DNA of 64,000 nucleotides, from positions 39,321 to 103,320 of the IMG/VR virus record IMGVR_UViG_3300029288_000109; one strand, 5' to 3'. This DNA is from a virus (taxonomy: Duplodnaviria > Caudoviricetes). Position 1 is the first letter of the stretch. Each line of letters begins with the position of its first letter. Shown here piece by piece: positions 14,910 to 53,535 of the stretch. The notes under the pieces are model-generated. The model saw only the letters and a program-made list of their open reading frames with translations, had not been told where the DNA came from and searched no databases. Position numbers and translations under genes: made by a program.

Positions 14910-15266
14910 ATGCTTGATTTCGAGAATATAGCCGCGTTTATTGAACACGCACCAGATTATATTCCTTCTATCTTTATTGACGTTGATGATACACTTGTGT
15001 TTGGATATGCCAGTAAGCCTAATCAGAAACTTTGTGATACAATAAAACAACTTAAAATAACATTTGGTGACAAGATATGTATTGTTGTATGGAGTCAGGG
15101 TGGTGCAGGATATGCAAAGGAAGCAGTAGAACATTGTAAAATATCTGAATATGTTGATCATTGTCTTGCCAAGCCACTTTATATAATAGATGATATGGAG
15201 AAACAATTTGGCGGAGGGATAACACAATTTGTGTTGCCACCAGAATTTGGAGGAGAAAACAAATGA
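14910..15266 (+). CDS. HAD-superfamily phosphatase
   Basis: DVDDTL, VWSQGG, AKP, IIDD. Confidence 0.75.
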   Translation: MLDFENIAAFIEHAPDYIPSIFIDVDDTLVFGYASKPNQKLCDTIKQLKITFGDKICIVVWSQGGAGYAKEAVEHCKISEYVDHCLAKPLYIIDDMEKQFGGGITQFVLPPEFGGENK

Positions 15267-16402
15267 CATACGATAGACAAGTAACGCAATGTTCAAAAAG
15301 CAATTACGCTAAAATGGTTACAATTTCAGATGTTGTACCAGCACAGAATTCAGATAATCTAGATTGCATCCAATTCAAAGAGGTTGGGTGGCAAACCATA
15401 GCTAAAAGAGGCGAGTTTAAACCAGGGGCTAAGGTTATGTTCCTGCCGCCCGAATCTGTTCTACCAAAAGAACTTATAGACGAGCTTGGTGTTGAGGGGT
15501 ATTTATCCAAGGGTAAGGTAAAAGCTATTAAACTGCGTGGAAACCGCTCAGAAGGGCTTATAGTGGACCACAGCATCGTTAAACCATACGTTGACTATAT
15601 ACTTCACTGGGAAGAAATTGTGCCTATAGCATCTGAAATGAAGGGACAAACACAGAAAAAGATTGAAACACCTGGTTCATTTCATATATTCTACAAGATA
15701 CAGAATCTTTTGAACGAACCAGATACTTTTGTCACAGGCGAAAAAATATTCCATTCAGAAAAGGTCCATGGAACCAATTGCAGATTTGGCTATCTGTTGA
15801 ATCCACGCAACAAAAAGTATCAACTATATGTAGGATCTCACAACACCGTAAGGAGAGAATTTCCGTTAGACCCGCCATTCGTAGAAAAATTTATAAAAGC
15901 GTTCAGAAGGCTTAAAAAAGACAAAATATTTATTATTAAAAGGATATTAATGGCAGCAAAAAGAGCAACGGTAAAGGTACCAAAAGAAAGCGGCCTTTAT
16001 TGGCGCGTTGTGCGTAATTACGCCCAGGACGAGACCACGTTGCCCAAGGATATTGTTTTCTATGGTGAAATTTATGGGGCTGGCGTTCAAGACCTTACTT
16101 ATGCTCTTGACAACCAGAAACTTATTGTTTTTGCCGCATCCGTCAATGGAGAATACCTTAATGCCAACGAGGTAACAGCATTGTGCGCTATCCACAATCT
16201 TCCATGTGTTAAATTTTACGGGACAATATATAAAGATATTGAACAGATAAGGAGTTTTGCAGAAACAAAATCAGAGATGCCAGGCTTTGAAAAGAGTTTT
16301 AGGGAAGGCGTTGTGGTTGTCTCAGATGCAAAACCAATAAGGATGGCCAAGATGATTAGTCTGGAATATCTTTCCAGAAAGAAAGGAAGCGAGAAACACT
16401 AG
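15263..16402 (+). CDS. RNA ligase, DRB0094 family
   Basis: N-terminal OB-like module (GWQ..KRGEFKPG, IKLRGNRSEGL), SEKVHGTN, YGEIYGAGVQ, REGVVV, KMISLEYL. Confidence 0.88.
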   Translation: MTYDRQVTQCSKSNYAKMVTISDVVPAQNSDNLDCIQFKEVGWQTIAKRGEFKPGAKVMFLPPESVLPKELIDELGVEGYLSKGKVKAIKLRGNRSEGLIVDHSIVKPYVDYILHWEEIVPIASEMKGQTQKKIETPGSFHIFYKIQNLLNEPDTFVTGEKIFHSEKVHGTNCRFGYLLNPRNKKYQLYVGSHNTVRREFPLDPPFVEKFIKAFRRLKKDKIFIIKRILMAAKRATVKVPKESGLYWRVVRNYAQDETTLPKDIVFYGEIYGAGVQDLTYALDNQKLIVFAASVNGEYLNANEVTALCAIHNLPCVKFYGTIYKDIEQIRSFAETKSEMPGFEKSFREGVVVVSDAKPIRMAKMISLEYLSRKKGSEKH

Positions 16403-25488: not shown

Positions 25489-25833
25489 AACCGTACCCCC
25501 TTATCCATCTAAAAGTTTTTGAAGCTCTCTTATGAACTCTCTCTTTTTGTGTTTTTCTGCGTCCCACTTAAGAACCAAATAGCCACCAATATGCCTATAT
25601 ATATTAGTATAGATAGTTTCGTCTTTGTGGTTTTTTGTGTCATTTTTGAGTGACTCATTGCTTGTTCTGCTGTCTGGAAAGTATCTCATTTTTAACCCCA
25701 GTGGACGGAATCGAACCGCCAAAATATGCCCATCCCCATTACTGTTGAGAGCATCGTTTTGCCACTTAAACTACACTAAGGCGAAAAAATCACCATTGGG
25801 TGATGATTTTTCCATATAGGAGTATCAATCCTA

Positions 25834-35616: not shown

Positions 35617-37701
35617 TTAACCCCCAATTGAATATTTTTTCCTATCTCTAAGCTCGGCCATCTTGCCACGACTCCATGTTCCAACTTTTGAAAAATATCC
35701 AGTAACACGAGTTATCCACTCTAATTTTTTACCACCACAATCAGGACAATCGTCTATAAGTCCCATATGAAGTTTACCACAATCGGTACAAAGCGAAAAC
35801 TCAGGTGAAAAAACTATTTGCTTACACATTGTTTTACTGTGTATTTTTTTAATAAGATCAAGGATGCTTTTTGCGTCTGGCATCTTATCGCCCATCCATC
35901 CGTGCACAATGGCTCCAGCGGTTATAAACGGATGGAACACGCTTTGTTTTTTTATACGTTCAATAATATCTATATCTGCATCATAAGCAAAATGGATACT
36001 ATTGGTGTAATATATATCACCAGTCTCTGGATTCCCCTTTACTACCATCTTTGCACAATCTTGAAAATGGGCCATGTCAAGTCGCGCAAACCTGTAAGAC
36101 GTGCTTTCAGCAGGGGTCTCTTCTAAAACAAACTTCATATCCTCGCTTTTTTTAAATTCATCACAACATTCTTTCATAAATTTAATTATCTCAAGACCAA
36201 AGTCATACGCTTCTTGACTTTCGTGAAGTTCAGCACCACAATGATGTTTAACCATCTCATTAAGACCAAGAACTCCAATAAGATAACTTGACCTATCAAA
36301 ATAAATATATGGTTCACCATCCATACCATTAGCAAAAAACGACAATGGACCATCCTTTTGTTCAATAAGCTTTTTAATATATTCTGTCTTTTGCTTATGG
36401 GCTTTAACAGCTATTTTCATAGCATCGTGTATCTCATTAAATAGGGCTTTATCTTTGTAATTGGCCTTATATGCACACCTAGGTAAATTAACAGTTACAT
36501 TTTGAACACCAACAAATCTTACATCCTCTGGTTTGGCAAGCAGCTTTCTATCTTCTGTAGTAAGTTCAAGCGTTAATCTACAACACTGTGCTAGACTCGG
36601 AAGTTCCCCCCTATCAAAAAGAAAGTATATGCTGCCATTCTTGCTTACGCACTGTGCCGCCTTCTCAAGTAACCATATGTTTTTTTCATTAAACGATTCT
36701 TTATCAATGTGTAAGTTTGGTTTAGGAAAAAAGAACGGTGTGCCATTCTTGTCTCCATCATAGTACACATCAAGCAGGGCGCTTAAAAACTGTTGCGCTT
36801 CTTCTTCGTAGTCTTGATAGAACTTTCCTGTGTATTCTCCACCGTTACCAATGGCAGGAACATCAAGATAATGATGCGGCACATGCGTAAACAGATTAAA
36901 ATCTGTAAATGCAACTTGTCCACCACGGGCACCAGCTAATTGTGAAAATCCATAGACGAGCATTTGGGCTATTTGTTTAACCTCTTTGTCGTTCATGCCC
37001 ACAATCATTGGGGCAAAAAACAAATTAACAGCGTCAAATCCAATAGCTCCAGCAAATAACCCCTGCATAAAATTAGCAAATGTTAAAAGCTGAGTCACAA
37101 ACACTTCTGGATGTCGTGGTGGTACACTTACACATGTAACAGATGGAAGTTTAAGACCATGTTTTTTAACATATTCTGGAGAATGAGACCCACAATAAGG
37201 ACGAGTAATAAACCCAAGGTCGTGAAGATGTACGTCACCAGCCATATGAGCCTCTGCCACATCAGGAGAGAACACGCGCTGTAAAGCATACTCTTTCTGA
37301 ACCATCTCTGATAAAACAAGGTTTATAGACTCTGGCGAAAGAGGCGTGTTTGAATTCTCTTTCGCCTTATTCTGAATCACGGCCTCAATCTCAGATAATG
37401 AGATACGAACACCATCATGGAGCTTGGCCTTCCCAAGTAGTCCTCGCTCCATGAGCTCTACATCAATCAGCGCTCGTATCAACGATGTTGTAATATCAGT
37501 AATACCTAACTGTATAATTTTCTTCTCAACCGATTTGGCTATGTCTTTTGCCCTATGTTTTATTAACGATATTTCGTTGCGCAATGAGTCTTCTATCCGC
37601 ACAACGTCAAAGTCCGAGACCTCTTCTTGGGAAAAGGTACTGACTCTGAGAACCTTGTCTGTTACATCAATTTTTTCTTTTTGTTTTCTGACTCTTATCA
37701 C
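35617..37701 (-). CDS. nrdD: anaerobic (class III) ribonucleoside-triphosphate reductase
   Basis: ATP-cone, HLHDL, PYC, AQCCRL, ETPAES, YYTNS, CxxC/CxxC, RVTGY glycyl-radical motif. Confidence 0.95.
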   Translation of the reverse strand: MIRVRKQKEKIDVTDKVLRVSTFSQEEVSDFDVVRIEDSLRNEISLIKHRAKDIAKSVEKKIIQLGITDITTSLIRALIDVELMERGLLGKAKLHDGVRISLSEIEAVIQNKAKENSNTPLSPESINLVLSEMVQKEYALQRVFSPDVAEAHMAGDVHLHDLGFITRPYCGSHSPEYVKKHGLKLPSVTCVSVPPRHPEVFVTQLLTFANFMQGLFAGAIGFDAVNLFFAPMIVGMNDKEVKQIAQMLVYGFSQLAGARGGQVAFTDFNLFTHVPHHYLDVPAIGNGGEYTGKFYQDYEEEAQQFLSALLDVYYDGDKNGTPFFFPKPNLHIDKESFNEKNIWLLEKAAQCVSKNGSIYFLFDRGELPSLAQCCRLTLELTTEDRKLLAKPEDVRFVGVQNVTVNLPRCAYKANYKDKALFNEIHDAMKIAVKAHKQKTEYIKKLIEQKDGPLSFFANGMDGEPYIYFDRSSYLIGVLGLNEMVKHHCGAELHESQEAYDFGLEIIKFMKECCDEFKKSEDMKFVLEETPAESTSYRFARLDMAHFQDCAKMVVKGNPETGDIYYTNSIHFAYDADIDIIERIKKQSVFHPFITAGAIVHGWMGDKMPDAKSILDLIKKIHSKTMCKQIVFSPEFSLCTDCGKLHMGLIDDCPDCGGKKLEWITRVTGYFSKVGTWSRGKMAELRDRKKYSIGG

Positions 37702-43037: not shown

Positions 43038-43039
43038 AG

Positions 43040-43110
43040 TGGAGCTAACAGGATTTGGACCCGTGCTATCGCCGTGCAAGGGCGAGGTTCTCCCATTAAA
43101 CTATAGCCCC
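43040..43110 (-). tRNA. tRNA-Ala(UGC)
   Basis: cloverleaf, TCGCC-CTTGCAC-GGCGA, G3:U70; T-loop TCCAAAT. Confidence 0.9.
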
Positions 43111-43159
43111 AATAACCCTGCTGAATGCGCGAGGCAAGCCCAGTAGGGGGTAGATAACA

Positions 43160-43561
43160 CTATTCTTCTACATGATTTTTGCCATCTACAAAAACAGGAG
43201 TTTTGAACTCGGTAAAAATCTCTGTTATAAATATCCCATCGAACACAAACTTATAATTATATTCTCCGTATTTAACACGAGCACCATACATACACGCAAA
43301 CTCGTCACTCAAAACAAAGCAATCTGTCTCATAGTTATAATAGCCATTAAACCTATAGCCACCTAGCCCACGATCCAGCCTATCCTGAAAATCACGAAAA
43401 CAATTATCAAAACCATCAAAATCAACCACGTCTGACGAAGTAAAAATAATATCCCTGCTGCGCAAATCAAAAACTTCAATTAAGATTACCAAAACACTCT
43501 CCTCTTTCATATATATGCTACTTTTTACTACGTATCCAATACCCCTGTGGCGGGGATTCAA
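43160..43561 (-). CDS. hypothetical protein (likely start ~43510)
   Basis: ORF between HNH and tRNA-Ala. Confidence 0.5.
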   Translation of the reverse strand: MNPRHRGIGYVVKSSIYMKEESVLVILIEVFDLRSRDIIFTSSDVVDFDGFDNCFRDFQDRLDRGLGGYRFNGYYNYETDCFVLSDEFACMYGARVKYGEYNYKFVFDGIFITEIFTEFKTPVFVDGKNHVEE

Positions 43562-44057
43562 TGCCTAATCTTTTACATCTTTTTTTAATTGCTTTATCAG
43601 ATACACCATATTTTTTTGCTACTCTAGTCATCGGAGCGCTCCAAACTTCTTTGTGTAGTTCGTCAGCAGTAATATCAAATCGCTTTGATGCCGCCGTAGA
43701 ACAAGGAGGTGAACAATATGTTCTATTTACATTTTTTGTTTTAAATACTATTTTACACACAGGACAAGTGAATTCATAAATTTTAAAATCATAGTTGTTG
43801 TTTTTATGTAATCTTGCATGTTCACTTTTTGTTAAAATAATTAAATTTTCTAAATCATTGTTTTTCTTATTGCCATCAACATGATGGACTACCTCATTTT
43901 TGGTCAACCATCTTCCAAGTTTTATTGAAGCAATATGACGATGTAAATAAACTATACTACAACTATAACTTAGTGGGTGCGAACCATCATTAAAATATAA
44001 ATACCCTTCTTTTTCACTAAGTTTTTTATTTTTTATTTCGTATTCAATGGGTTCCAT
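43518..44057 (-). CDS. HNH homing endonuclease with zinc finger and C-terminal HTH
   Basis: HRH..S.KLGRWL...EVVHHVDGNKKNN..ENL; CxxC; YGVSD.AIKKRCK..GYW; start re-set to MEPIEY. Confidence 0.88.
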   Translation of the reverse strand: MEPIEYEIKNKKLSEKEGYLYFNDGSHPLSYSCSIVYLHRHIASIKLGRWLTKNEVVHHVDGNKKNNDLENLIILTKSEHARLHKNNNYDFKIYEFTCPVCKIVFKTKNVNRTYCSPPCSTAASKRFDITADELHKEVWSAPMTRVAKKYGVSDKAIKKRCKRLGIESPPQGYWIRSKK

Positions 44058-44084
44058 AATTTTTATTCTTTCTACGCCTTTATA

Positions 44085-44155
44085 TACGAATGGCCGTAAT
44101 CGAAACGACATCTTCTGGATGTAAGCCAGATGCACTACCTTTATGCTACATTCGC
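44085..44155 (-). tRNA. tRNA-Val(UAC)
   Basis: TCTGG-CTTACAT-CCAGA; acceptor GCGAATG/CATTCGT-A. Confidence 0.88.
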
Positions 44156-44160
44156 ATTTA

Positions 44161-44349
44161 CTATTGATACAACGCGCCCCTCATCAAACATCCACACCTT
44201 GGGCACTCACGGGCGCTACACGGCGTTTTCGTAGCATGGGTAATGGTAAGACCACACTCTGGACAAATACACCGTTCTGACGCCTGTACAGCTTGCGACT
44301 GTTTCAATTTTGAAACATGTGTTATTTTTGGCACACGTTCTATTTTCAT
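44161..44349 (-). CDS. small zinc-ribbon protein
   Basis: CICPECG..ITH....PC....CPRCG.LMR; ATG 2 nt after tRNA-Asn. Confidence 0.7.
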   Translation of the reverse strand: MKIERVPKITHVSKLKQSQAVQASERCICPECGLTITHATKTPCSARECPRCGCLMRGALYQ

Positions 44350-44351
44350 AG

Positions 44352-44425
44352 CTCCTAGAGGCGGACTCGAACCACCAGAAAACCGGAGCAACAATCCGGG
44401 GCCATACCAATTAGGCGATCTAGGA
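44352..44425 (-). tRNA. tRNA-Asn(GUU)
   Basis: CCGGA-TTGTTGC-TCCGG; TCCTAGA/TCTAGGA-G. Confidence 0.88.
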
Positions 44426-44444
44426 ATATGTTCAATTATAATAG

Positions 44445-44516
44445 CTGCCCTGAGAGGGGTCGAACCCCTATACCTTGGTCCAAGGCCAAGTGTCCTACCG
44501 TTTAGACGACAGGGCA
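44445..44516 (-). tRNA. tRNA-Gln(UUG)
   Basis: CTTGG-CCTTGGA-CCAAG (C33); TGCCCTG/CAGGGCA-G. Confidence 0.85.
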
Positions 44517-44524
44517 TTAAATAA

Positions 44525-44598
44525 AAGCCGTGGCTGAAATCGAATCAGACAAAGAAGCTTTTGCAGAGCTCCCCCAGAACCATCTGGGAACCACAGCC
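44525..44598 (-). tRNA. tRNA-Cys(GCA), non-canonical 8/4 fold
   Basis: GCA anticodon, U73, 8-bp acceptor, 4-bp T-stem, 6-bp D-stem. Confidence 0.8.
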
Positions 44599-44711
44599 AT
44601 CGGGCAGTTTTATATCGTGCCCAGGATAAATCCAATAAAAGGACGTGCTTGATAGGTTTTTGCCACCGGATCCTATCGTCCGGCTCAGAAGGAATCTTGC
44701 GACCTTGGCAA
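44599..44711 (-). ncRNA. candidate structured ncRNA between tRNA-Gly and tRNA-Cys
   Basis: three-way junction plus GATAGG/CCTATC pseudoknot and 3' hairpin. Confidence 0.5.
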
Positions 44712-44786
44712 AGCGAATGATGGGACTTGAACCCACAAAATCTCTTGGTTGGAAGCCAAGCGCCCTACCAATTAGGCTACATTCGC
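44712..44786 (-). tRNA. tRNA-Gly(UCC)
   Basis: CTTGG-CTTCCAA-CCAAG; U73. Confidence 0.93.
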
Positions 44787-44790
44787 ATCA

Positions 44791-44869
44791 TACCCCTGGC
44801 GAGACTCGAACTCGCAATTAATTTGCAGCATTAGAAGTGCTGTGCACTGTCCAGTTGTGCTACAGGGGC
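44791..44869 (-). tRNA. tRNA-Arg(UCU)
   Basis: CAGCA-CTTCTAA-TGCTG; A20; 10-nt variable region. Confidence 0.9.
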
Positions 44870-44874
44870 AAAAA

Positions 44875-45114
44875 TTATTCAATTAAGCTACAGGGGTATA
44901 AGTCTATAATATTACAAAACTCACTATACAACCTGTCTAAATTATTATACTTCCCCTTGTCATCAATTTTTATTTTGCCGCTGGCAACCATCTCGATCAA
45001 CTTATCATACACAACAAGCAAATGCCGTGAGCACAAACAATATACCTTATTGCTGCGCCACCCCAAATCTTTCGAGAGACCAATTCCTTCTTCTTCACAA
45101 AGATTACATTTCAT
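44875..45114 (-). CDS. small zinc-binding hypothetical protein
   Basis: CNLC...CSRH. Confidence 0.55.
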   Translation of the reverse strand: MKCNLCEEEGIGLSKDLGWRSNKVYCLCSRHLLVVYDKLIEMVASGKIKIDDKGKYNNLDRLYSEFCNIIDLYPCSLIE

Positions 45115-45787
45115 AGTGTTTACCTGTCCAGTATCCTTTGGTTGGGAAATTTATTCCAAACTTTTTACAACGCTTCTTTACGGCATTACCAGATACTCCA
45201 TATTTTTCTGCAATTTTTGTCATTGGTGTTTGCCACACCATTTCTCTTAACTCGTTTTCTGGTATATCAAACTTAAATAGCTTGTTATATATAGGTAATC
45301 TTTGTGCCATAAACTCACAAGCGCGAGAGCAACATCTATGTTTGCTATTTCTTACTAAAAATAAATTATTACATATTGCACAATTCTTTAATGTTAAACG
45401 AAGTGTTCTGTGTTTTTTAAAACCATCATTACTATTACTCTTGTTGTTCTTTACTTTGCATTCAATCGAACAATATTTACTACCCAACCACCCTAAAAAT
45501 AAACATCCACACACACAACATGTTTTTGAATAACTGCTAAAATGTTTTTTGGCGTGATTTGAATGCGTCATTAATTCAAGATTAGATAAATCATTATTGC
45601 TTCTATTTCCGTCTATGTGATGAACATTCTCATTAGTATTAATCCACCTTCCTATTTTCATAGACATCAAGTGTCTATGATATAAAACAACTCCACTAGT
45701 GTCCGAAAGAGGGTGCAACTTATCACAAAAATAACAGTATCCTCTTGGCATTTTAGAAATCTTTATATCTTTATTATACTCAATCAT
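45104..45787 (-). CDS. HNH homing endonuclease with two zinc fingers and C-terminal HTH
   Basis: HPLS...YHRH...GRWI...VHHIDGNRSNN..SNL; YGVSG.AVKKRCK..GYW. Confidence 0.9.
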   Translation of the reverse strand: MIEYNKDIKISKMPRGYCYFCDKLHPLSDTSGVVLYHRHLMSMKIGRWINTNENVHHIDGNRSNNDLSNLELMTHSNHAKKHFSSYSKTCCVCGCLFLGWLGSKYCSIECKVKNNKSNSNDGFKKHRTLRLTLKNCAICNNLFLVRNSKHRCCSRACEFMAQRLPIYNKLFKFDIPENELREMVWQTPMTKIAEKYGVSGNAVKKRCKKFGINFPTKGYWTGKHYEM

Positions 45788-45789
45788 AA

Positions 45790-45881
45790 CGGAAGGGGAG
45801 CGAGTTGAACGCTCAAGACACGGTGTTTCCGCATTCGGTAATTTTCAAGACTACTGCCGTCGCCAATCGGCTTGCCCTTCC
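45790..45881 (-). tRNA. tRNA-Ser(UGA)
   Basis: GTAGT-CTTGAAA-ATTAC, long variable arm, G73. Confidence 0.9.
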
Positions 45882-45884
45882 AAG

Positions 45885-45960
45885 CGTCTATGAGAGGACT
45901 TGAACCCCCAAAATCTTTCGGTTCGTAGCCGAATGCTCTATCCGGTTGAGCTACATAGAC
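45885..45960 (-). tRNA. tRNA-Arg(ACG)
   Basis: TTCGG-CTACGAA-CCGAA. Confidence 0.93.
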
Positions 45961-45969
45961 GCAAACTAC

Positions 45970-46128
45970 TTATTTCGGAAAATCCCTTATTGAATCACGA
46001 TCTTCTTTTGGAACGTATGTACCATGAGCAATAGAACCAACACAACCTGAAAGAACTGTATTGCTATGAATATCAAACTCGTTAAAATCAGAAAGTACAT
46101 GTTTATATTCTTTTTGCCATTTTTCCAT
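45970..46128 (-). pseudogene. truncated Pol-beta-type nucleotidyltransferase (RlaP-like) fragment
   Basis: GSIAHGTYVP....DSI, then stop before the catalytic DxD. Confidence 0.6.
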
Positions 46129-46150
46129 TGCTAATTGCGCCCCTTTTAGA

Positions 46151-46228
46151 CGAGACGACGGGGACTTGAACCCCGAAAATAAAATCACGGCTTAAAAGGC
46201 CGCTGCCTTACCATTAGGCTATCGTCTC
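46151..46228 (-). tRNA. tRNA-Lys(UUU)
   Basis: GCGGC-CTTTTAA-GCCGT; 11-nt U-rich variable region. Confidence 0.9.
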
Positions 46229-46231
46229 TTG

Positions 46232-46306
46232 TGGACCCACTCAGGCTTGAACTGAGAACCTGTTGATTATGAGTCAACTGCTCTAAACCATTTGAGCTAT
46301 GGATCC
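46232..46306 (-). tRNA. tRNA(CAU), probably Ile2 (lysidine) rather than Met
   Basis: GTTGA-CTCATAA-TCAAC; GGATCCA acceptor resembles Ile2. Confidence 0.85.
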
Positions 46307-46336
46307 GTCCCGCGTATAAAACGCAGGAATAACCAC

Positions 46337-47026
46337 TTATCTTACTGCAACACCACGCCACGTTTCAATACGCTTCTTTACAAACATTTTTAAATCAAAA
46401 TCTTTTTCTGGTTTGTAGATAACTATTAAAACATCATCATCGGTCTTAAATCGTGGATAACGAACCACGCTTCTATTTTCCCCAAAATCATCGGTAACAG
46501 CATCAACCGGAAGTCGATTTTGTTCTGAAATACGTTTATCCTTTTTTTCTGGCGAATCATAACACGAACCATAAATAACCCTGAATACATTTATTATATG
46601 CGGGTTACGCCAATCACTATTAATAACATCAAACGCATCACATAACGAAATCCCAGTATCAGAAATATGAGTAAAACTATTTTCATGGTACCACAAAATT
46701 TGCGGTCTAACAAAAAAATGGTTAAAATTATTTTGTGTTACACCACTATCGGCAGACTCATAAGAGTAGTAAACCGAGAATATATCCCCACCAAGCTCTT
46801 TTCCTCCGGTATAAAGAGCCTCCAACGGATCTACATTATTTTTTACTCGTGATGGAGTAGAGTTTATAACACTATCGTCTAACCTGCGAACAATAATATC
46901 ATCAATAAACCTATTGTCGTCCATTGCCCAATCTCTTGTTACACACGGCTGACCACAAAATTCACTTGTTAATTGCTTTAGCCCTTCAAATTCTTCCAAA
47001 AATGCTTTAAACCTTAATCTTTCCAT
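46337..47026 (-). CDS. hypothetical protein
   Basis: 229-aa ORF, SD GGAGGT. Confidence 0.7.
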   Translation of the reverse strand: MERLRFKAFLEEFEGLKQLTSEFCGQPCVTRDWAMDDNRFIDDIIVRRLDDSVINSTPSRVKNNVDPLEALYTGGKELGGDIFSVYYSYESADSGVTQNNFNHFFVRPQILWYHENSFTHISDTGISLCDAFDVINSDWRNPHIINVFRVIYGSCYDSPEKKDKRISEQNRLPVDAVTDDFGENRSVVRYPRFKTDDDVLIVIYKPEKDFDLKMFVKKRIETWRGVAVR

Positions 47027-47074
47027 TTTAATTACCTCCCGTAATTAAAAACTTTGGCATCCCGCCAACGACCA

Positions 47075-47113
47075 CTATTTCTTAGGCTTGCATTTCTTTT
47101 TTGCTTTAGGCAT
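47075..47113 (-). CDS. 12-aa basic micropeptide MPKAKKKCKPKK
   Basis: very strong SD GAGGGGGTGA; downstream hairpin plus T-run. Confidence 0.45.
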   Translation of the reverse strand: MPKAKKKCKPKK

Positions 47114-47138
47114 ATGATCACCCCCTCTATAATATTTA

Positions 47139-47204
47139 TTACTGTTTGTGTTTAGCCCAATATCCACGACCAGGTTTTTCTTTTCCACATTTTTCACACT
47201 TCAT
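47139..47204 (-). pseudogene. collapsed HNH remnant MKCEKCGKEKPGRGYWAKHKQ
   Basis: N-terminal CxxCG joined to the P..GYW tail shared by neighbouring HNHs; SD GGTGA. Confidence 0.55.
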
Positions 47205-47229
47205 GTTTTATCACCATTTATAATAATTA

Positions 47230-47304
47230 CAGGATCGGAGAGACTCGAACTCTCAAATTACTTGTTTTGGAGACAAGTGCCTTATCCATTTTGGCCACGA
47301 TCCT
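47230..47304 (-). tRNA. tRNA-Trp(CCA)
   Basis: CTTGT-CTCCAAA-ACAAG; AGG start, G73. Confidence 0.93.
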
Positions 47305-47308
47305 AAAC

Positions 47309-47392
47309 TGCCCAAGGTGAGATTTGAACTCACATGGCATTTCTGCCAACGGATTTTAAGTCCGCACGGTATCCCAGTTCCACCACTTGGGC
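47309..47392 (-). tRNA. tRNA-Leu(UAA)
   Basis: GCGGA-CTTAAAA-TCCGT, long variable arm. Confidence 0.92.
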
Positions 47393-47420
47393 AATCGGCG
47401 GGTAGACCCCGCCTAAATAT

Positions 47421-47834
47421 TTATTCTTTTTCTTGTTCTGGAGTAGCTTCTGACTGCATTCGTGCATTATGGCCACGATGTACAAGATGAACTATCTCAT
47501 TCAAAACCGAATAAGGCGAATTACTAATAGTTTCACTCATATAAGGTTGATCACACTGTTTGGTGTCTTCAACCATTGGCAAACACGCTGCCCCACTATT
47601 ACTATGAACATGTCTACCTACGACATTGTTTATTTTATCATTTAATCGTTCCTTAATACCATCTCTATACTGACTACAAACACTCATAATTCTTTCATCA
47701 ATCGCAAGCAAAAAACCAATAGGATCATCTTGCATAATACTAACCAACCTTTGTGCAACCTCATCTCCACCCATTTTGTTGATTTCTTCACGCAATTCCG
47801 TATCAGTTTTCATTATCCTGTCCTTTCCGCGCAT
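47421..47834 (-). CDS. hypothetical protein
   Basis: 137-aa ORF, SD-like AAGGA upstream of MKTD. Confidence 0.6.
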   Translation of the reverse strand: MRGKDRIMKTDTELREEINKMGGDEVAQRLVSIMQDDPIGFLLAIDERIMSVCSQYRDGIKERLNDKINNVVGRHVHSNSGAACLPMVEDTKQCDQPYMSETISNSPYSVLNEIVHLVHRGHNARMQSEATPEQEKE

Positions 47835-47852
47835 AGCGCATAAAATGTTTCA

Positions 47853-47877
47853 AGCGAGTAACGAGGCTTGAACTCGT
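47853..47877 (-). pseudogene. tRNA 3' fragment (T-arm plus acceptor strand, Gly-like)
   Basis: ACGAG-TTCAAGC-CTCGT-TACTCGC-T; no D or anticodon arm upstream. Confidence 0.7.
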
Positions 47878-47888
47878 ATTGTTGTAAA

Positions 47889-48464
47889 CTATATATGCAT
47901 AATGTTTTCTTTTTTTAACCAATATCCTTGGTTTTTAGTCTCTATTCCTAATTTTTTACATCTTTTTTTAACCGCAACATCAGAAACCCCATATATTTTC
48001 GCTATATCTCGCAATGACATTTTATTGACAAGTAATATTAATTCTTGTATTTCTTTATCAGTATTAATTTTTAGTTTCTCATAATGCCTATGTGCACATC
48101 CTATAGAACAATGCTTCCTGTTTTTATCTCCTTCAAATATTTTACCACAAAACAAACACACAACTTGTTTTTTCTTACAAGAAGAATCCCTATTATGACT
48201 ATGTATTTTAGCATGATCTGAACACGTAACAAGCTGCAAATTCCCAATTGAGTTGTTGTCTATATCGCCATCTATATGATGAACGTGTTCGTCGCTATGT
48301 AGCCATCTCCCAAGTTTCAACGACGCCTGATGTCTATGATAATAAACAAAACCGCTTTTATAACATAATGGATGTTCCATGTCACAAAAAACTAATCGTC
48401 CATTTATACGACGTTTGCACAAATTAATCAATTTATCATAATCTTTTGGCAATAAGTATTTCAT
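47889..48464 (-). CDS. HNH homing endonuclease with zinc finger and C-terminal HTH
   Basis: HPL...YHRHQASLKLGRWL...VHHIDGDIDNN..GNL; YGVSD.AVKKRCK..GYW. Confidence 0.9.
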   Translation of the reverse strand: MKYLLPKDYDKLINLCKRRINGRLVFCDMEHPLCYKSGFVYYHRHQASLKLGRWLHSDEHVHHIDGDIDNNSIGNLQLVTCSDHAKIHSHNRDSSCKKKQVVCLFCGKIFEGDKNRKHCSIGCAHRHYEKLKINTDKEIQELILLVNKMSLRDIAKIYGVSDVAVKKRCKKLGIETKNQGYWLKKENIMHI

Positions 48465-48466
48465 AA

Positions 48467-48543
48467 TTACGGGGATCAGATTTGAACTGATGTCTCGGAT
48501 TTATGAGACCCGCACTGGAACCAGACTCCAGAATTACCCCGTA
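48467..48543 (-). tRNA. tRNA-Met(CAU), initiator-like, enlarged D-arm
   Basis: CGGGT-CTCATAA-ATCCG; TACGGGG/CCCCGTA-A; ATCAG-TTCAAAT-CTGAT. Confidence 0.8.
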
Positions 48544-48548
48544 ATAAA

Positions 48549-48866
48549 CTATATCAAACTCAGTAATCCCAAAATAACAACAGTACCAATATCATATAAC
48601 TCTCTTATAATGCCAACCCTATTATCTGTTTTAACAGCATCGGCAAACTCAGTAAATTCCTCGAACATTACTCCCAAAACCTCGTGGGGCGAAACAAGCT
48701 TTTTATAGCCTTTCTTTTTAAGAGCCTCTTTAAAATTTTTATTCATAGCGTCAAAAACCACATGCAAAAGGTCCATGTTAAGTTCTTCAGCCATTTTGCT
48801 CGAAGCCCCCTTGTGTTTCACTAATACGCTTGTTTGCTTTTTCTGCATAATCAGCCGACAACTCAA
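48549..48866 (-). CDS. MazG-like NTP pyrophosphohydrolase fold protein (likely start ~48794)
   Basis: HE..GV..EEF.EF......ELYDI. Confidence 0.55.
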   Translation of the reverse strand: MSCRLIMQKKQTSVLVKHKGASSKMAEELNMDLLHVVFDAMNKNFKEALKKKGYKKLVSPHEVLGVMFEEFTEFADAVKTDNRVGIIRELYDIGTVVILGLLSLI

Positions 48867-49584
48867 ATCCTATAAAATTACGGTCAAGTTTCTTGCAAGC
48901 CACCCCAGTGGTTCCAAGACCAGCAAAAGGGTCTACAACAACATCATAGCGATATGTCAACTGTTGTAACAACCTGTATGGCAATTCAACAGGAAACATA
49001 GCTGTGTGACCCATTGCTTTTTGTTTTGTTTCAGGTGCCATCGTCCACATTGCAAGACTATTCTTTATAAACTCGTCTCTAGAAACAGTCGCTTCTCCCT
49101 TATCACGTCGCTTTGTTGTCTCTTTGGCAAACACCATAATATACTCAAACGGAGTTGGAAAAGACGGGCACGATGGAGACAACCACGATCCCCACGATGT
49201 TCTATTACCTATCTGACTCTTGTTCCAAATTATGGTCGTCATTGGAATATAATTCAATTGTCTAGACATAAAATAAATAATATCAACATGAGTAGGAATA
49301 GCGCCATTTTTTCGATCTCCTATATTAATAGCAACTCTTCCGCCACTTTTCAAGCGATAATACAGTTTTTCAAAAATACTTTTAAGCCACCCTATGTACT
49401 CTGTATGCTCCCGATTATCATTATACAGGTCATATGACTCTTTATGATACTTGTTGTTGCCAAGGTCCACGTTATAAGGAGGACTTGTTATAACCATATC
49501 TATCGAATTTTCACGCAAGCTGTCAATTAATAGTAAACTGTCCCCCTGTGTCACTAACTGGAACACTGGCGTCCTCCATTTCAA
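48787..49584 (-). CDS. DNA amino-methyltransferase, beta class (N4-C/N6-A)
   Basis: GDS, TSPPY, HTAMFP, DPFAGLGTT, FIGFEL. Confidence 0.92.
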   Translation of the reverse strand: MKWRTPVFQLVTQGDSLLLIDSLRENSIDMVITSPPYNVDLGNNKYHKESYDLYNDNREHTEYIGWLKSIFEKLYYRLKSGGRVAINIGDRKNGAIPTHVDIIYFMSRQLNYIPMTTIIWNKSQIGNRTSWGSWLSPSCPSFPTPFEYIMVFAKETTKRRDKGEATVSRDEFIKNSLAMWTMAPETKQKAMGHTAMFPVELPYRLLQQLTYRYDVVVDPFAGLGTTGVACKKLDRNFIGFELSADYAEKANKRISETQGGFEQNG

Positions 49585-50126
49585 GTATGATTTTTTTCAA
49601 CCTGTACGTTGCGTCAACCTTCTTGAAATCAAAACCATTAATCATTATATCGGACTGCATCAACTTAGCCGCCACAGCTATAAGTATCATAGGGTCTTTA
49701 CACACCAGTTTCAACAAAAATTCTTTTATTTTTATTAACATGTTATATGGCCCCATTCGGAACATATAGGCTGCTGCCAGGCTGCTGCGCCTGTTGTGCC
49801 ATCATTGCTTCTTCAACCGCTTTCTCAAAGTTAAGCTCCATCACTTTCAGAATTCCGACAACAACCCTGCAAAACGACAAAAGACTTTTGTTCTCTTCGA
49901 GCTCCAAATCAACACCATCGTGTTCAGCAACAAGTTTGACTATCTTATCAGAAACTCTCCCAAGAACACCGCGCTGACCTTCCTTAACATCAAAACCAGT
50001 AATCTTTTCTCCTGCTTCCTTAATCTGCTCCCATGGTATTGTCTGCAATATAGCATTCATAACCTGTTCAATCGGAGCATCCTGTGTCGTTATAATCGGA
50101 TTAGCCATTAAATATCCTCCACCCAT
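49523..50126 (-). CDS. two hypothetical proteins (49523-~49742, 49743-~50108)
   Basis: packed ORFs. Confidence 0.5.
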
Positions 50127-50578
50127 TTAGGATAAACACCAAGCCTTATTTTGTTTTGTTCAATAGCATTAGCTCTTATCATTTGTATATGAGGGTAGTC
50201 TTTGAAACTAGTCCAATCACCGCCCCAGAAAAGACCAAGCTTTTTAGATATAGCACCAAGCTTACTCCATGGCAACTTCATGTCCCATGACCAATTACCC
50301 TTATTGTCTTTTCCTACAAAATCAACTGCGACCCCATACGTGTGCATACCAGCGGTCTTAACCTTTGAATAACCCTTTTTATAAAGCTCAAGCTGCCTTG
50401 CGTTAGATCTGAATGTTTCATAAATATAAAATGGCAACTTCTGTTTGGCAAGCTCCTGCTTCACTTGTATAACTTTTTCACGAAACGGCGGATAAAGCAA
50501 ACAAATCTGTTCCTCGCCACACCACTTTGGAGATTTAAAAACATCGGACTTCACAATAACTTCTTTATACCAGTTCAT
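50108..50578 (-). CDS. M15 family peptidoglycan peptidase (endolysin-like)
   Basis: FRS...Q..LY, HTYGVAVD, WGGDW..FKDYPHIQ. Confidence 0.88.
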   Translation of the reverse strand: MNWYKEVIVKSDVFKSPKWCGEEQICLLYPPFREKVIQVKQELAKQKLPFYIYETFRSNARQLELYKKGYSKVKTAGMHTYGVAVDFVGKDNKGNWSWDMKLPWSKLGAISKKLGLFWGGDWTSFKDYPHIQMIRANAIEQNKIRLGVYPKWVEDI

Positions 50579-50671
50579 ATCACGCCTCCTAAATGCGCCA
50601 GATGTTCGCCTTTGTATTTATCCACTACTTTCGTAGTTAGAGTTTCAATACTCAAGCTATCTCTGGACTAA

Positions 50672-50743
50672 TGACCCTGCGGAGAATCGAACTCCGATTA
50701 CCAGGGCGAAAACCTGGTGTATGATCCATTATACTACAGGGCC
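50672..50743 (-). tRNA. tRNA-Glu(UUC)
   Basis: CCAGG-TTTTCGC-CCTGG. Confidence 0.9.
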
Positions 50744-50745
50744 AA

Positions 50746-50817
50746 TGTGATCGACGGGACTTGAACCCGCACCCTCTGCGTTCACAGCGCAGCGCTCTGC
50801 CTTGAGCTACGACCACC
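50746..50817 (-). tRNA. tRNA-His(GUG) with encoded G-1 and A73
   Basis: CTGCG-CTGTGAA-CGCAG; G-GTGGTCG/CGATCAC-A. Confidence 0.88.
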
Positions 50818-50840
50818 ATACATATTTTAATCATTTACAA

Positions 50841-50923
50841 TGGGCATGGAGGGAGTCGAACCCTCAAGGTTTTTAGCCACGTGGGTTTGAGCCACGCTTG
50901 GTTTCCAGTTTCAACACACGCCC
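50841..50923 (-). tRNA. tRNA-Leu(CAA)
   Basis: CGTGG-CTCAAAC-CCACG, variable arm. Confidence 0.9.
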
Positions 50924-50930
50924 ATAGGAA

Positions 50931-51851
50931 CTATTTTTTTAACCAAAAACCCTGTTTTGGTCTTTCTATATTAAGCTTATTGCATCTTTTAGCCACAGCC
51001 TTATCAGAAACCCCATATATTTTAGCAACATCACGCAATGGCATTTTATTAACATAAGAAATAAATTCTTGTATTTCTTCTTCTGTGTTAGTTTTTAGTT
51101 TTTGTTGCGCCTTGTGTGCGCACTCTTGAGAACAAAACTCATTCCTTTTATTATCAAATTCTTTACCACAATAAATACATTTATTTTTTATCTTGTTTGT
51201 TTTAGGGGCAACATCTTTTTGAAATTTTACCTTCCTGCTTCTGTGACAATTGACTCTTGGTATATATGAATAATCACTATCGTTATATACCGTTAAATCT
51301 ATAAAAATAGTGTTTGTTTCCTTCAAAAACGAAAAAGTCAAAATTCTACGTAAATTATCCCATTCAACATCACTAACACAATTATCTGTTTTCTGTGAAA
51401 ACAAAAACCAATGTAATTTAGTATGCGCCACCCTACTCATAATTAATAAATTCCTTGCAGAAAAATTTTTAGGGTTCTCGTCTATATGATGAACTACCTC
51501 ATTAAACTCAAGTTTTCTTCCTACTATAGACTCGGCTACAAGCCTATGAACATGACGTTCTCCATCATAAATATATTTTCCGAGTTTGCCATGCTGATTT
51601 TGTCTACAAATAAGATGGCAACTTTTACAATACCGCTGATTCTTTTTCCACAACCTAATTTCTTTCCCACAATTTTTACAATTACTTATGCCATACCTCC
51701 CTCCCCTATTTTTGAGTTGTTCCCCAACTCTCAAATTAAAACATTTTCTACAATATTTTCTATCTTTTAAACTTTGTTCGCCACATTTTATACATATGCC
51801 TTTTGGCACATTAATCACCGTTATTAATTCAAAGTTTCTCCACCTGGGCAT
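50931..51851 (-). CDS. HNH homing endonuclease with zinc fingers and C-terminal HTH (likely GTG start ~51809)
   Basis: HRLVAE...EVVHHIDENPKN...NL; YGVSDKAVAKRC..GFW. Confidence 0.88.
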   Translation of the reverse strand: MPRWRNFELITVINVPKGICIKCGEQSLKDRKYCRKCFNLRVGEQLKNRGGRYGISNCKNCGKEIRLWKKNQRYCKSCHLICRQNQHGKLGKYIYDGERHVHRLVAESIVGRKLEFNEVVHHIDENPKNFSARNLLIMSRVAHTKLHWFLFSQKTDNCVSDVEWDNLRRILTFSFLKETNTIFIDLTVYNDSDYSYIPRVNCHRSRKVKFQKDVAPKTNKIKNKCIYCGKEFDNKRNEFCSQECAHKAQQKLKTNTEEEIQEFISYVNKMPLRDVAKIYGVSDKAVAKRCNKLNIERPKQGFWLKK

Positions 51852-51855
51852 TACA

Positions 51856-52392
51856 TCAATTGTATTCGTTTGGTTCTACACCGAGATAAATAGACCAAAT
51901 TTTTTTGGAGTATTCGTCGCATCTGGGGCCAATTTCAGCAATAATATATTGCCTTAATTTTGGAGCATAAGGGGCCCTATTCAAATGTAAGCCAGAGTTT
52001 TTAAGACTTTGGTGTCCTTTTTTTACGTTACATGGTTTGCAACTGGTTGTCACATTATCCCAAACAGAAATACCGCCACTACACTTCGGAATAACATGAT
52101 CTATGGTCAAGGTATTAATATCGCCGCTTTTTCCGCAATATTGGCAAGTAAACTTATCCCTGATCATAACGTTCTTTCTTGAAAACTTAACGGGCTTGGT
52201 TAAACCAAAGTGACGATTAGCCACCGTAATAACCAGAGGAACCTTAATTTGAACAGAAGGGCTGCGCAAAACCTTGTCTGGGTGCTCTTCAACAACCGAG
52301 GCTCTGCCAGCAAACACCATAGAGACAGCCTTTTGAGAAGAAACCCATCCAATAAATTGATAACCCCTGTTAAGAACCATTGCTCTGCTCAT
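51856..52392 (-). CDS. HNH endonuclease, McrA-like family
   Basis: MVLN.GY, RDKFTCQYCG, TIDHVIP..SGG...WDNV..SCKPCN..KG. Confidence 0.9.
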   Translation of the reverse strand: MSRAMVLNRGYQFIGWVSSQKAVSMVFAGRASVVEEHPDKVLRSPSVQIKVPLVITVANRHFGLTKPVKFSRKNVMIRDKFTCQYCGKSGDINTLTIDHVIPKCSGGISVWDNVTTSCKPCNVKKGHQSLKNSGLHLNRAPYAPKLRQYIIAEIGPRCDEYSKKIWSIYLGVEPNEYN

Positions 52393-52407
52393 TTTAATTT
52401 CCCCCTA

Positions 52408-52482
52408 TAGCCCGTCCTGGTAACGATCCAGGTGCCTCTTGTATATCAGACAAGCGCTCTAAGCCATTTGAGCTAACGGGCC
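52408..52482 (-). tRNA. tRNA-Ile(GAU)
   Basis: CTTGT-CTGATAT-ACAAG; T-loop ATCGTTA. Confidence 0.88.
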
Positions 52483-52501
52483 ATTTTCTTTTTATTCATA
52501 G

Positions 52502-52580
52502 TGGCCGAGAAGAGAGTCGAACTCTTATGATTTCTCGCTATCTTCTAAAGATAGTGCGCCTACCGTTACGCCACTCGGCC
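52502..52580 (-). tRNA. tRNA-Leu(UAG), shortened T-loop
   Basis: CTATC-TTTAGAA-GATAG; AAGAG-TTCGA-CTCTT; GGCCGAG/CTCGGCC-A. Confidence 0.75.
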
Positions 52581-53423
52581 TTTATTTGTTCTTGTTCTGC
52601 TTCTTAAGTGTAATGACGCATGTTCAGAAATATCCATTATTTCCAAATTAGAAGGATCATTATTATCTTTGTTTCCATCTACGTGATGAACTATATTATT
52701 TTTAGTCAACCACCTACCGTCTTTAACAGAGGCAACATGTCTGTGTAATAAGACCACTCCCCTTTTATCACTTAATGGGTGCTCTTTGTCTATAAAAAAC
52801 CAATATCCGTGCAACATTTTGTCGTACTTTCTTACAACAAAACTCTTGTTGTATTCAGATGGTGTTTTAAATTTAACGCCTGGCTTAGGTCTTATTTCTT
52901 TAAAACAATTCGAGCAAACTAACAATAGGTTATCAATAACATGATTTGAATAATCACCATCCATATGAAGCACCTCTAACCAAACTTTACCTGTAGATGG
53001 AGTTATTTTATTATACCCACAACGCTCACATTTTTCACCACGAGTCTCAATTATGTGTCGTTTTACATAATTTGATACTTTAAAATCGGTTCCTCCTCGC
53101 TCCTCTCCGTTTAACCATCTTTTTATATATTCATCGTGATAATGCCTTGTTTTACATTTTATACTACAAAATTTTATCTTACCAGTTTTGTTATAAATTT
53201 CTTTGCCACAATACGTACATGTACCTGCTAAAAACATTTTAACACCATTAAAAATATATGCAACAACCCTATTGTCTAACACCGCCTTAGTATTATGTTT
53301 TCCAAATGGCGAACACTTTAAACAAAATTTTCTACTATTAATTATATGCGGAACATCATCTATTATAATACGATTAGGAAATTCATCACCACATCTTCTG
53401 CATTTTGGCATTTGTTCACCCAT
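52566..53423 (-). CDS. double-HNH homing endonuclease
   Basis: CERCG...LEVLHMDGDYSNH..DNL..VCSNC and HRH...GRWL...VHHVDGNKDNN..SNL. Confidence 0.88.
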   Translation of the reverse strand: MGEQMPKCRRCGDEFPNRIIIDDVPHIINSRKFCLKCSPFGKHNTKAVLDNRVVAYIFNGVKMFLAGTCTYCGKEIYNKTGKIKFCSIKCKTRHYHDEYIKRWLNGEERGGTDFKVSNYVKRHIIETRGEKCERCGYNKITPSTGKVWLEVLHMDGDYSNHVIDNLLLVCSNCFKEIRPKPGVKFKTPSEYNKSFVVRKYDKMLHGYWFFIDKEHPLSDKRGVVLLHRHVASVKDGRWLTKNNIVHHVDGNKDNNDPSNLEIMDISEHASLHLRSRTRTNKGRVA

Positions 53424-53458
53424 GTGTAGCTTAATTTATAACATTATTTTTTTAAAAA

Positions 53459-53535
53459 TCTGAGCGGGTAGATTTGAACTACCGAATTGTCCTGTCCCCA
53501 AAACAGGCCGGGTGGCCAGACTCCCGAACGCTCAG
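53459..53535 (-). tRNA. tRNA-Pro(UGG)
   Basis: CCTGT-TTTGGGG-ACAGG; C1-G72, A73. Confidence 0.9.

Follow-up and report, generated by a model that had tools for sequence, protein, structure and literature searches.

A candidate short-armed tRNA-Cys with an 8/4 acceptor/T branch and a Sec-like D arm in a phage tRNA array

The 7/5 split of base pairs between the acceptor and T stems is near-universal in tRNA. It is among the most conserved tRNA features, and its natural exceptions define the tolerance of the translation machinery; non-7/5 tRNAs also supply scaffolds for genetic-code engineering. tRNA-Sec has a UCA anticodon, a long variable arm, a 13-bp acceptor/T branch (8/5 in bacteria) and G73. 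(8/4) tRNA-Ser and tRNA-His are known in phages and some bacteria (Mukai et al. 2017, Nucleic Acids Res 45:2776, PMC5389517). Two classes with a long variable arm are described in the same study: allo-tRNAs, in which the branch is 8/4 or 9/3 and the D arm is Sec-like, and the selC* tRNA-Cys, which has a Sec-like body. The authors further report that 8/4 tRNAs, an 8/4 tRNA-Cys among them, are active in E. coli translation, and that some irregular 8/4 tRNAs are charged yet unused in translation, or uncharged. According to this source, the main identity elements for CysRS are U73 and the GCA anticodon, both of which are present in the gene described here. The preliminary description of this gene had cited rare 8/4 tRNAs, among them selC*-type tRNA-Cys, as precedents, in agreement with that work (PMC5389517). 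In full-text literature searches we found no earlier report of a short-armed 8/4 tRNA-Cys, and a later review (PMC7609411) adds none.

The candidate gene lies in the window, that is, the whole 64,000-nucleotide stretch of DNA that was analysed, which is part of a 103-kb IMG/VR record of an uncultured phage (estimated to be about 64% complete, 35% G+C). It fills a gap in a tRNA array, between tRNA-Gly (113 nt upstream) and tRNA-Gln (8 nt downstream). The array is flanked by a UvsX-like recombinase gene and a DnaB-like helicase gene and includes at least five HNH homing-endonuclease genes. Sixteen of the 18 ARAGORN array tRNAs scored above the Rfam tRNA cut-off. Scanning the surroundings of the array for promoters and terminators yielded nothing informative. 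CCA is encoded by none of the array tRNAs, and we therefore assumed host 3' maturation for all of them; no CCA-adding enzyme domain was found in the 103-kb record. The tRNA-His of the array has an encoded G-1 opposite A73. The coordinates of the features are given in Table 1.

Table 1. Features of the candidate gene, its surroundings and the actinomycete genes compared with it (positions refer to the window unless preceded by a locus label)
Feature	Position	Strand	Basis or remark
tRNA array, 18 genes interspersed with HNH endonuclease genes	43039..53535	minus	ARAGORN
Spacer from tRNA-Gly to the candidate, 113 nt	44599..44711	minus	context
tRNA-Cys(GCA)-type gene, 74 nt	44525..44598	minus	G1 = 44598, discriminator U = 44525; CCA not encoded
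Acceptor stem 5' strand, positions 1-8, preceded by U at -1	44591..44598	minus	RNAfold and pair probabilities
Connector UU, 2 nt (positions 8 and 9)	44589..44590	minus	RNAfold
D arm: 6-bp stem, 4-nt loop UGGU, tRNA-Sec/allo-tRNA-like	44573..44588	minus	pair probabilities 0.96-1.0
Anticodon arm: 6-bp stem, loop CUGCAAA; anticodon GCA at 44562-44564	44554..44572	minus	sequence and RNAfold
Variable loop UUUGU, 5 nt, class I, no long arm	44549..44553	minus	sequence and RNAfold
T arm: 4-bp stem, loop UUCGAUU; fifth pair would be U.C	44534..44548	minus	RNAfold and probabilities
Acceptor stem 3' strand	44526..44533	minus	RNAfold and pair probabilities
Accessory Cys-type tRNA genes, 77-78 nt	L265:1501-1578; L299:1489-1565; L289:1501-1577; L293:1501-1578	minus; minus; minus; plus	

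The preliminary description had remarked on the many Cys-rich proteins encoded here. The predicted phage proteins indeed contain 2.2% Cys, roughly double the usual bacterial level, with 608 Cys codons (438 UGU and 170 UGC). This high content is due to proteins such as zinc-finger HNH nucleases and radical-SAM enzymes. The record (103 kb, about 64% complete) contained no second tRNA-Cys or other Cys decoder. The window also carries genes for an RNA ligase (PHROG 968; 15263-16402, plus strand) and the anaerobic ribonucleotide reductase NrdD (35617-37701, minus strand), which hint at a tRNA repair capacity and an anaerobic host.

The cloverleaf proposed in the preliminary description, with an 8-bp acceptor, a 6-bp D stem with a 4-nt loop and a 4-bp T stem, is exactly the minimum free energy (MFE) structure given by RNAfold (-29.8 kcal/mol, z = -3.06); 2 of 200 shuffled sequences were equally good. 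The same cloverleaf was retained on folding with 351 nt of context, and all 24 pairs are standard (G-C, A-U or G-U). Direct reading also confirmed the minus-strand sequence quoted there, its GCA anticodon and its U73, and the variable loop is short, as stated. The acceptor pairs, between 44591-44598 and 44526-44533, are G.U, G-C, C-G, U.G, G-C, U-A, G-C and G-C. The 8/4 geometry hinges on G8-C66 (1-74 numbering), which had an ensemble probability of 0.99; the terminal G1.U73 wobble had one of 0.75. The 4-bp T stem is A/U-rich and weak alone (0.34-0.56). No 7/5 fold can form, since the fifth T-stem pair, at 49:65, would set U against C. The branch of 12 bp is thus predicted to divide into 8 bp of acceptor and 4 bp of T stem, which places it in the 8/4 class.

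The loops are canonical. The anticodon loop has U33, GCA and A37, the T loop is UUCGAUU, and the D loop contains GG. The GCA in a 7-nt loop with U33, together with the discriminator U73, marks the gene as Cys-type by direct sequence reading. Six pairs form in the anticodon stem, as the preliminary description had it, but the sixth is a Watson-Crick 26:44 pair on an ordinary 5-bp stem and deviates only modestly from the norm. What truly sets the fold apart is the additional acceptor pair, which goes with a shorter T stem, and the lengthening of the D stem by G14-C21 and A15-U20a. The D arm abuts the anticodon stem with no nucleotide between them, and its 16-nt length is that of the canonical tRNA-Cys D arm. 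All canonical array tRNAs have T at position 8; in the candidate it is at position 9, moved there because of the extra acceptor pair. An architecture descriptor matched this site alone on both strands of the window and, with relaxed thresholds, matched nothing in 2.8 Mb of other fetched phage DNA.

A 7/4 reading that starts at the second G, as drawn by ARAGORN -mt, would shorten the branch to 11 bp and place G instead of U at -1, and we judged it less likely for these reasons. RNase P and EF-Tu measure the canonical 12-bp acceptor/T helix. The 8/4 reading was favoured since it restores a 12-bp helix and places U at -1, which is common to 11 of the 16 canonical array tRNAs. In addition, a canonical phage tRNA-Cys (L187) also has a G.U first pair before U73, and we counted this precedent for the 8/4 reading.

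The candidate escaped the standard tRNA finders. In a 171-nt slice it was matched by neither the Rfam tRNA model (RF00005, cut-off 29 bits) nor the Rfam tRNA-Sec model (RF01852), even at E <= 10, and ARAGORN did not call it in bacterial mode. ARAGORN -mt reported an mtRNA-Cys(gca) at 44526-44597, with the outer G.U pair omitted. After almost any single change in silico that loosened the long D stem, ARAGORN drew an 8/4 tRNA-Cys, indicating that the D arm is what drops the candidate below threshold. When G34 alone was changed to U in silico (GCA to UCA), ARAGORN called a tRNA-SeC. The scaffold is therefore Sec-like by the criteria of ARAGORN, and the Sec-like D arm of the preliminary description, with its 6-bp stem and 4-nt loop, is present. 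The failure to detect the sole Cys decoder of the record illustrates that standard tRNA finders undercount phage tRNA repertoires.

Several other irregular tRNA-like elements were observed in the window. A CAU-anticodon tRNA-like gene (48466-48544, minus strand) lies directly upstream of an HNH ORF. It scored 27.4 bits with the Rfam tRNA model (cut-off 29), was missed by standard ARAGORN, and has a possible 6-bp D stem with a 5-nt loop and an unusually long connector. The tRNA-Ser(UGA) at 45789-45882 (minus strand) carries 3 nt, CAA, between its acceptor and D stems. The Rfam tRNA model does not accept it, the tRNA-Sec model gives it 37.9 bits (cut-off 47), and its MFE structure is an ordinary 7/5 fold with G73. 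An isolated tRNA-like gene far from the array (25695-25781, minus strand) scored 39.2 bits with the Rfam tRNA model. ARAGORN gave it a 2-nt 'anticodon' and, in intron mode, a CAA anticodon with a 12-nt anticodon-loop insert and no long variable arm. ARAGORN drew 8-bp acceptors for tRNA-Arg(UCU), tRNA-Ser, the CAU gene and the isolated gene. These are not 8/4 tRNAs, because the eighth pairs are only fortuitous -1:73 pairs on 7/5 tRNAs. Finally, a T-arm-like hairpin at 47866-47872 (minus strand; 5-bp stem, loop UUCAAGC) was rejected, as it has no surrounding cloverleaf. It sits between two ORFs and may be a tRNA remnant or a terminator.

We determined the sequence kinship of the candidate with R1, a covariance model built from the candidate alone. 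R1 recovered tRNA-Cys genes only, at 32-49 bits, from other phages and 40 actinomycete genomes. Canonical 7/5 tRNA-Cys of other phages scored 33-42 bits, and the canonical 72-nt tRNA-Cys of the actinomycete genomes scored 32-49 bits, the closest reaching 43-49 bits. The global identity was 72% to the actinomycete 7/5 tRNA-Cys genes, 61-67% to phage tRNA-Cys and at most 59% to the array neighbours. In the alignment with canonical tRNA-Cys, the acceptor strands, T loop and discriminator match up, and both share a 16-nt D arm with CCC...GGG flanks and a UGGUU centre. Three differences were found. First, the candidate has an extra G after position 7, opposite C65, with the 49:65 pair lost. Second, substitutions make positions 13-15 complementary to 20a-22. 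Third, there is a Watson-Crick pair at 26:44. Since the closest sequences are canonical tRNA-Cys, we regard the candidate as a remodelled tRNA-Cys and not as a tRNA-Sec that lacks its long arm.

No homologue of the candidate was found across IMG/VR, the JGI metagenomes, the GTDB genomes and cultured phages, and the fold is thus predicted from this one sequence. An exact 19-mer had no match in IMG/VR. A loop-anchored pattern gave 25 matches in IMG/VR, all of them canonical 7/5 tRNA-Cys in a shifted register, and a closed-D-tetraloop pattern gave 26 random matches there. The same kind of pattern gave 40 matches in the GTDB genomes, structured only in an Actinospica element. blastn against 50,697 cultured phages returned short chance matches only. 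An R1 match of 19 bits in a 190-kb distant relative (L195) was rejected as coding-like sequence with no D arm. The neighbouring UvsX-like recombinase had nothing closer than 38% identity among viral or metagenome contigs, no relatives of the phage DNA polymerase were found, and the loci of the UvsX-like relatives held no comparable tRNA.

The first match in Actinospica was a 78-nt gene found by a genome-wide pattern scan. Four such genes occur in three actinomycete genomes, two of them in Actinospica acidithermotolerans and the others in two related genomes. They carry a GCA anticodon and U73, and their stems measure 8 bp (acceptor), 6 bp (D, with a 3-4-nt loop), 6 bp (anticodon) and 4 bp (T). 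They share these stems, the absence of nucleotide 26 and a short variable region with the candidate. An invariant extra 3-bp helix (GCC:GGC) that encloses the D and anticodon arms is found in the Actinospica-type genes only; unlike the phage gene, they are chromosomal, high-GC and located downstream of tRNA-Leu genes. A canonical tRNA-Cys is kept beside the accessory genes in at least two of the three genomes. All cells of the set are paired (100%), four pairs show compensatory change, and only one of the four sequences would also permit a 7/5 fold. This shows that, elsewhere, Cys-type tRNAs with a short variable region combine the 8/4 branch and a long D stem as a selected design. R1 scored an Actinospica element at 44 bits, and R2, a covariance model built from the Actinospica elements, scored the candidate at 48 bits. 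Because canonical tRNAs reach similar cross-scores, common descent of the two is not established. R2 recovered canonical tRNA-Phe and tRNA-Cys only over 151 genomes of the class, and 150 other genomes of the class yielded no further elements. The tally includes seven genomes flagged as unpublished (G137, G145, G154, G159, G161, G165 and G172), on which none of our conclusions depends. We found no description of this gene type in the literature searched.

Given this evidence, the candidate is probably a working phage elongator tRNA-Cys of the known (8/4) class that arose from a canonical tRNA-Cys, as judged from its sequence and predicted fold. Transcription would take place as part of the polycistronic array. 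Since the coaxial acceptor/T helix, at 8+4 = 12 bp, is of canonical length, RNase P would be expected to cleave between the U at -1 and G1. After 3' trimming and CCA addition by host enzymes, the tRNA would be recognised via U73 and GCA and charged by host CysRS, and EF-Tu would bring it to the UGU and UGC codons of the Cys-rich, AT-rich phage proteome. As to its origin, the gene probably arose in two steps. A canonical 7/5 tRNA-Cys first lost the 49:65 pair and gained a G after position 7 that pairs with C65. Substitutions then made positions 13-15 complementary to 20a-22, converting a 4-bp D stem with an 8-nt loop to a 6-bp stem with a tetraloop. The remodelled D arm is the same core solution as that of tRNA-Sec and allo-tRNAs. 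With the D stem extended, A14, A21 and the 15:48 pair are lost. Because the CysRS of E. coli relies on the tertiary core of the tRNA, charging could be poor in some hosts.

The candidate might instead be a decaying or neutral relic of a tRNA-Cys, shaped by insertion and drift, which folds but is poorly processed or charged and has little role in translation. It is missed by all standard detectors, has no relatives in the searched collections and has a weak T stem. Furthermore, the other irregular or sub-threshold tRNA-like genes in the array, where mobile HNH endonucleases are abundant, could mean relaxed selection. Decay should break pairs, yet all 24 are intact. The change from 7/5 to 8/4 needed two matching changes, the D-stem extension needed about four substitutions, all mutually complementary, and every functional loop motif is retained in what is the only Cys decoder of the record. 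We consider such a relic unlikely, albeit the strongest competitor of a working tRNA-Cys.

It is rather improbable that the gene specifies a tRNA-shaped RNA without a decoding role, which would either punctuate the polycistronic transcript for RNase P/Z or, as a decoy or sponge, bind a host tRNA-targeting defence or some enzyme with affinity for tRNA. Irregular 8/4 tRNAs that are charged but unused, or uncharged, set a precedent for such an RNA (PMC5389517), and phage tRNAs are described as countering tRNA-targeting defences (PMC11555353). Mere punctuation would have no need of a perfect 7-nt anticodon loop (U33, GCA, A37) and U73. To our knowledge, there is no tRNA-Cys-specific nuclease, and we counted this against a decoy.

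A bolder proposal, to which we give only a slim chance, is that the rebuilt core is itself an adaptation. The gene would then provide a Cys decoder that is accepted by host CysRS, EF-Tu and the ribosome but hidden from a tRNA nuclease or factor that reads the elbow or core, and the Actinospica likeness would reflect an undescribed class of short-armed 8/4 tRNA-Cys. A core without the U8-A14 and 15-48 contacts, with a shifted acceptor/T junction, might evade a host tRNA-targeting nuclease.

The preliminary description had called the gene an unusual and possibly Sec-derived tRNA-Cys. The Cys-type gene, the 8/4 branch and the Sec-like D arm stand, whereas Sec ancestry does not. A tRNA-Cys that is derived from tRNA-Sec or depends on SelB, comparable to the selC* tRNA-Cys of Deltaproteobacteria, is very improbable here. 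The 8-bp acceptor, the 6-bp D stem with its tetraloop and the tRNA-SeC call after the GCA to UCA change are as expected of such a tRNA. The candidate, however, has no long variable arm and a branch of 12 bp in place of 13 bp, and U73 and the lack of a match to RF01852 also speak against such an origin. Moreover, the closest sequences are canonical 7/5 tRNA-Cys (72% identity, 43-49 bits with R1), and GCA reads ordinary Cys codons. Neither a GTP_EFTU domain (SelB/EF-Tu-type GTPase) nor a tRNA-synt_1e domain (CysRS) was found in the 103-kb record, which is about 64% complete, with ~36% of the genome missing.

Least probable of all are chance hairpins or an assembly artefact that put a spurious extra G into a 7/5 tRNA: the extra base does sit in a GG dinucleotide (44591-44592), but the inserted G and the loss of 49:65 are matched changes, since one G fewer leaves U.C at 49:65, the D-arm remodelling is independent of that base, and chance origin is excluded by an analytic expectation of about 5e-5 per window (about 0.375^24 x 8e5 placements) together with an architecture that is unique in the window and absent elsewhere.

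If the candidate is a working tRNA-Cys, it would add a class-I tRNA-Cys with a Sec-type D arm to the known 8/4 set of Ser, His, selC* Cys and Sec, and would show that a Sec-like core can exist without a long variable arm. The practical consequence is modest unless activity of the candidate is demonstrated.

Among the known systems, the phage (8/4) tRNA-His and tRNA-Ser resemble the candidate in their 12-bp branch split 8+4 and in their occurrence in phage tRNA clusters, and tRNA-His also belongs to a class that is normally short in the variable loop. The candidate differs from both in its Cys identity (GCA, U73); the comparison covers branch, genomic setting, variable-loop class and identity. 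A similar branch was seen in the annotated tRNA-Asp of the cultured Bacteroides phage crAss001 (MH675552; L224:2068-2143, plus strand), which is 8/4 by MFE, with an 8-bp acceptor, a 4-bp T stem, C.C at the would-be 49:65 and a normal D arm. The selC* tRNA-Cys shares the Cys identity (U73, with GCA or UCA in selC*), the tRNA-Sec-like body and the 8-bp acceptor, and Cys insertion in E. coli was shown for a selC* member with an 8/4 branch. In selC*, but not in the candidate, the variable arm is long and an A51a bulge is frequent, and the gene lies upstream of selB* in two Deltaproteobacterial subgroups, in one of them also of cysS*. The selC* hosts possess the Sec machinery, whereas the candidate record, about 64% complete, is without selB*- or cysS*-type domains. 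Allo-tRNAs likewise combine an 8/4 branch with a long D stem and tetraloop, but they have a long variable arm and mostly Ser identity, whereas the candidate is class I with Cys identity. tRNA-Sec (RF01852) has the same 6-bp D stem with a 4-nt loop; the candidate differs from it in the GCA anticodon, the 5-nt variable loop, the 8/4 branch of 12 bp and U73. Finally, the canonical 7/5 tRNA-Cys shares its acceptor sequence, D-arm length and flanks, T and anticodon loops and discriminator with the candidate, which is set apart by the extra acceptor nucleotide paired with C65, the missing 49:65 pair, the 6-bp D stem and the Watson-Crick 26:44 pair. The 8/4 style is already known in phages, and its combination with a short-armed tRNA-Cys was found nowhere in the literature searched.
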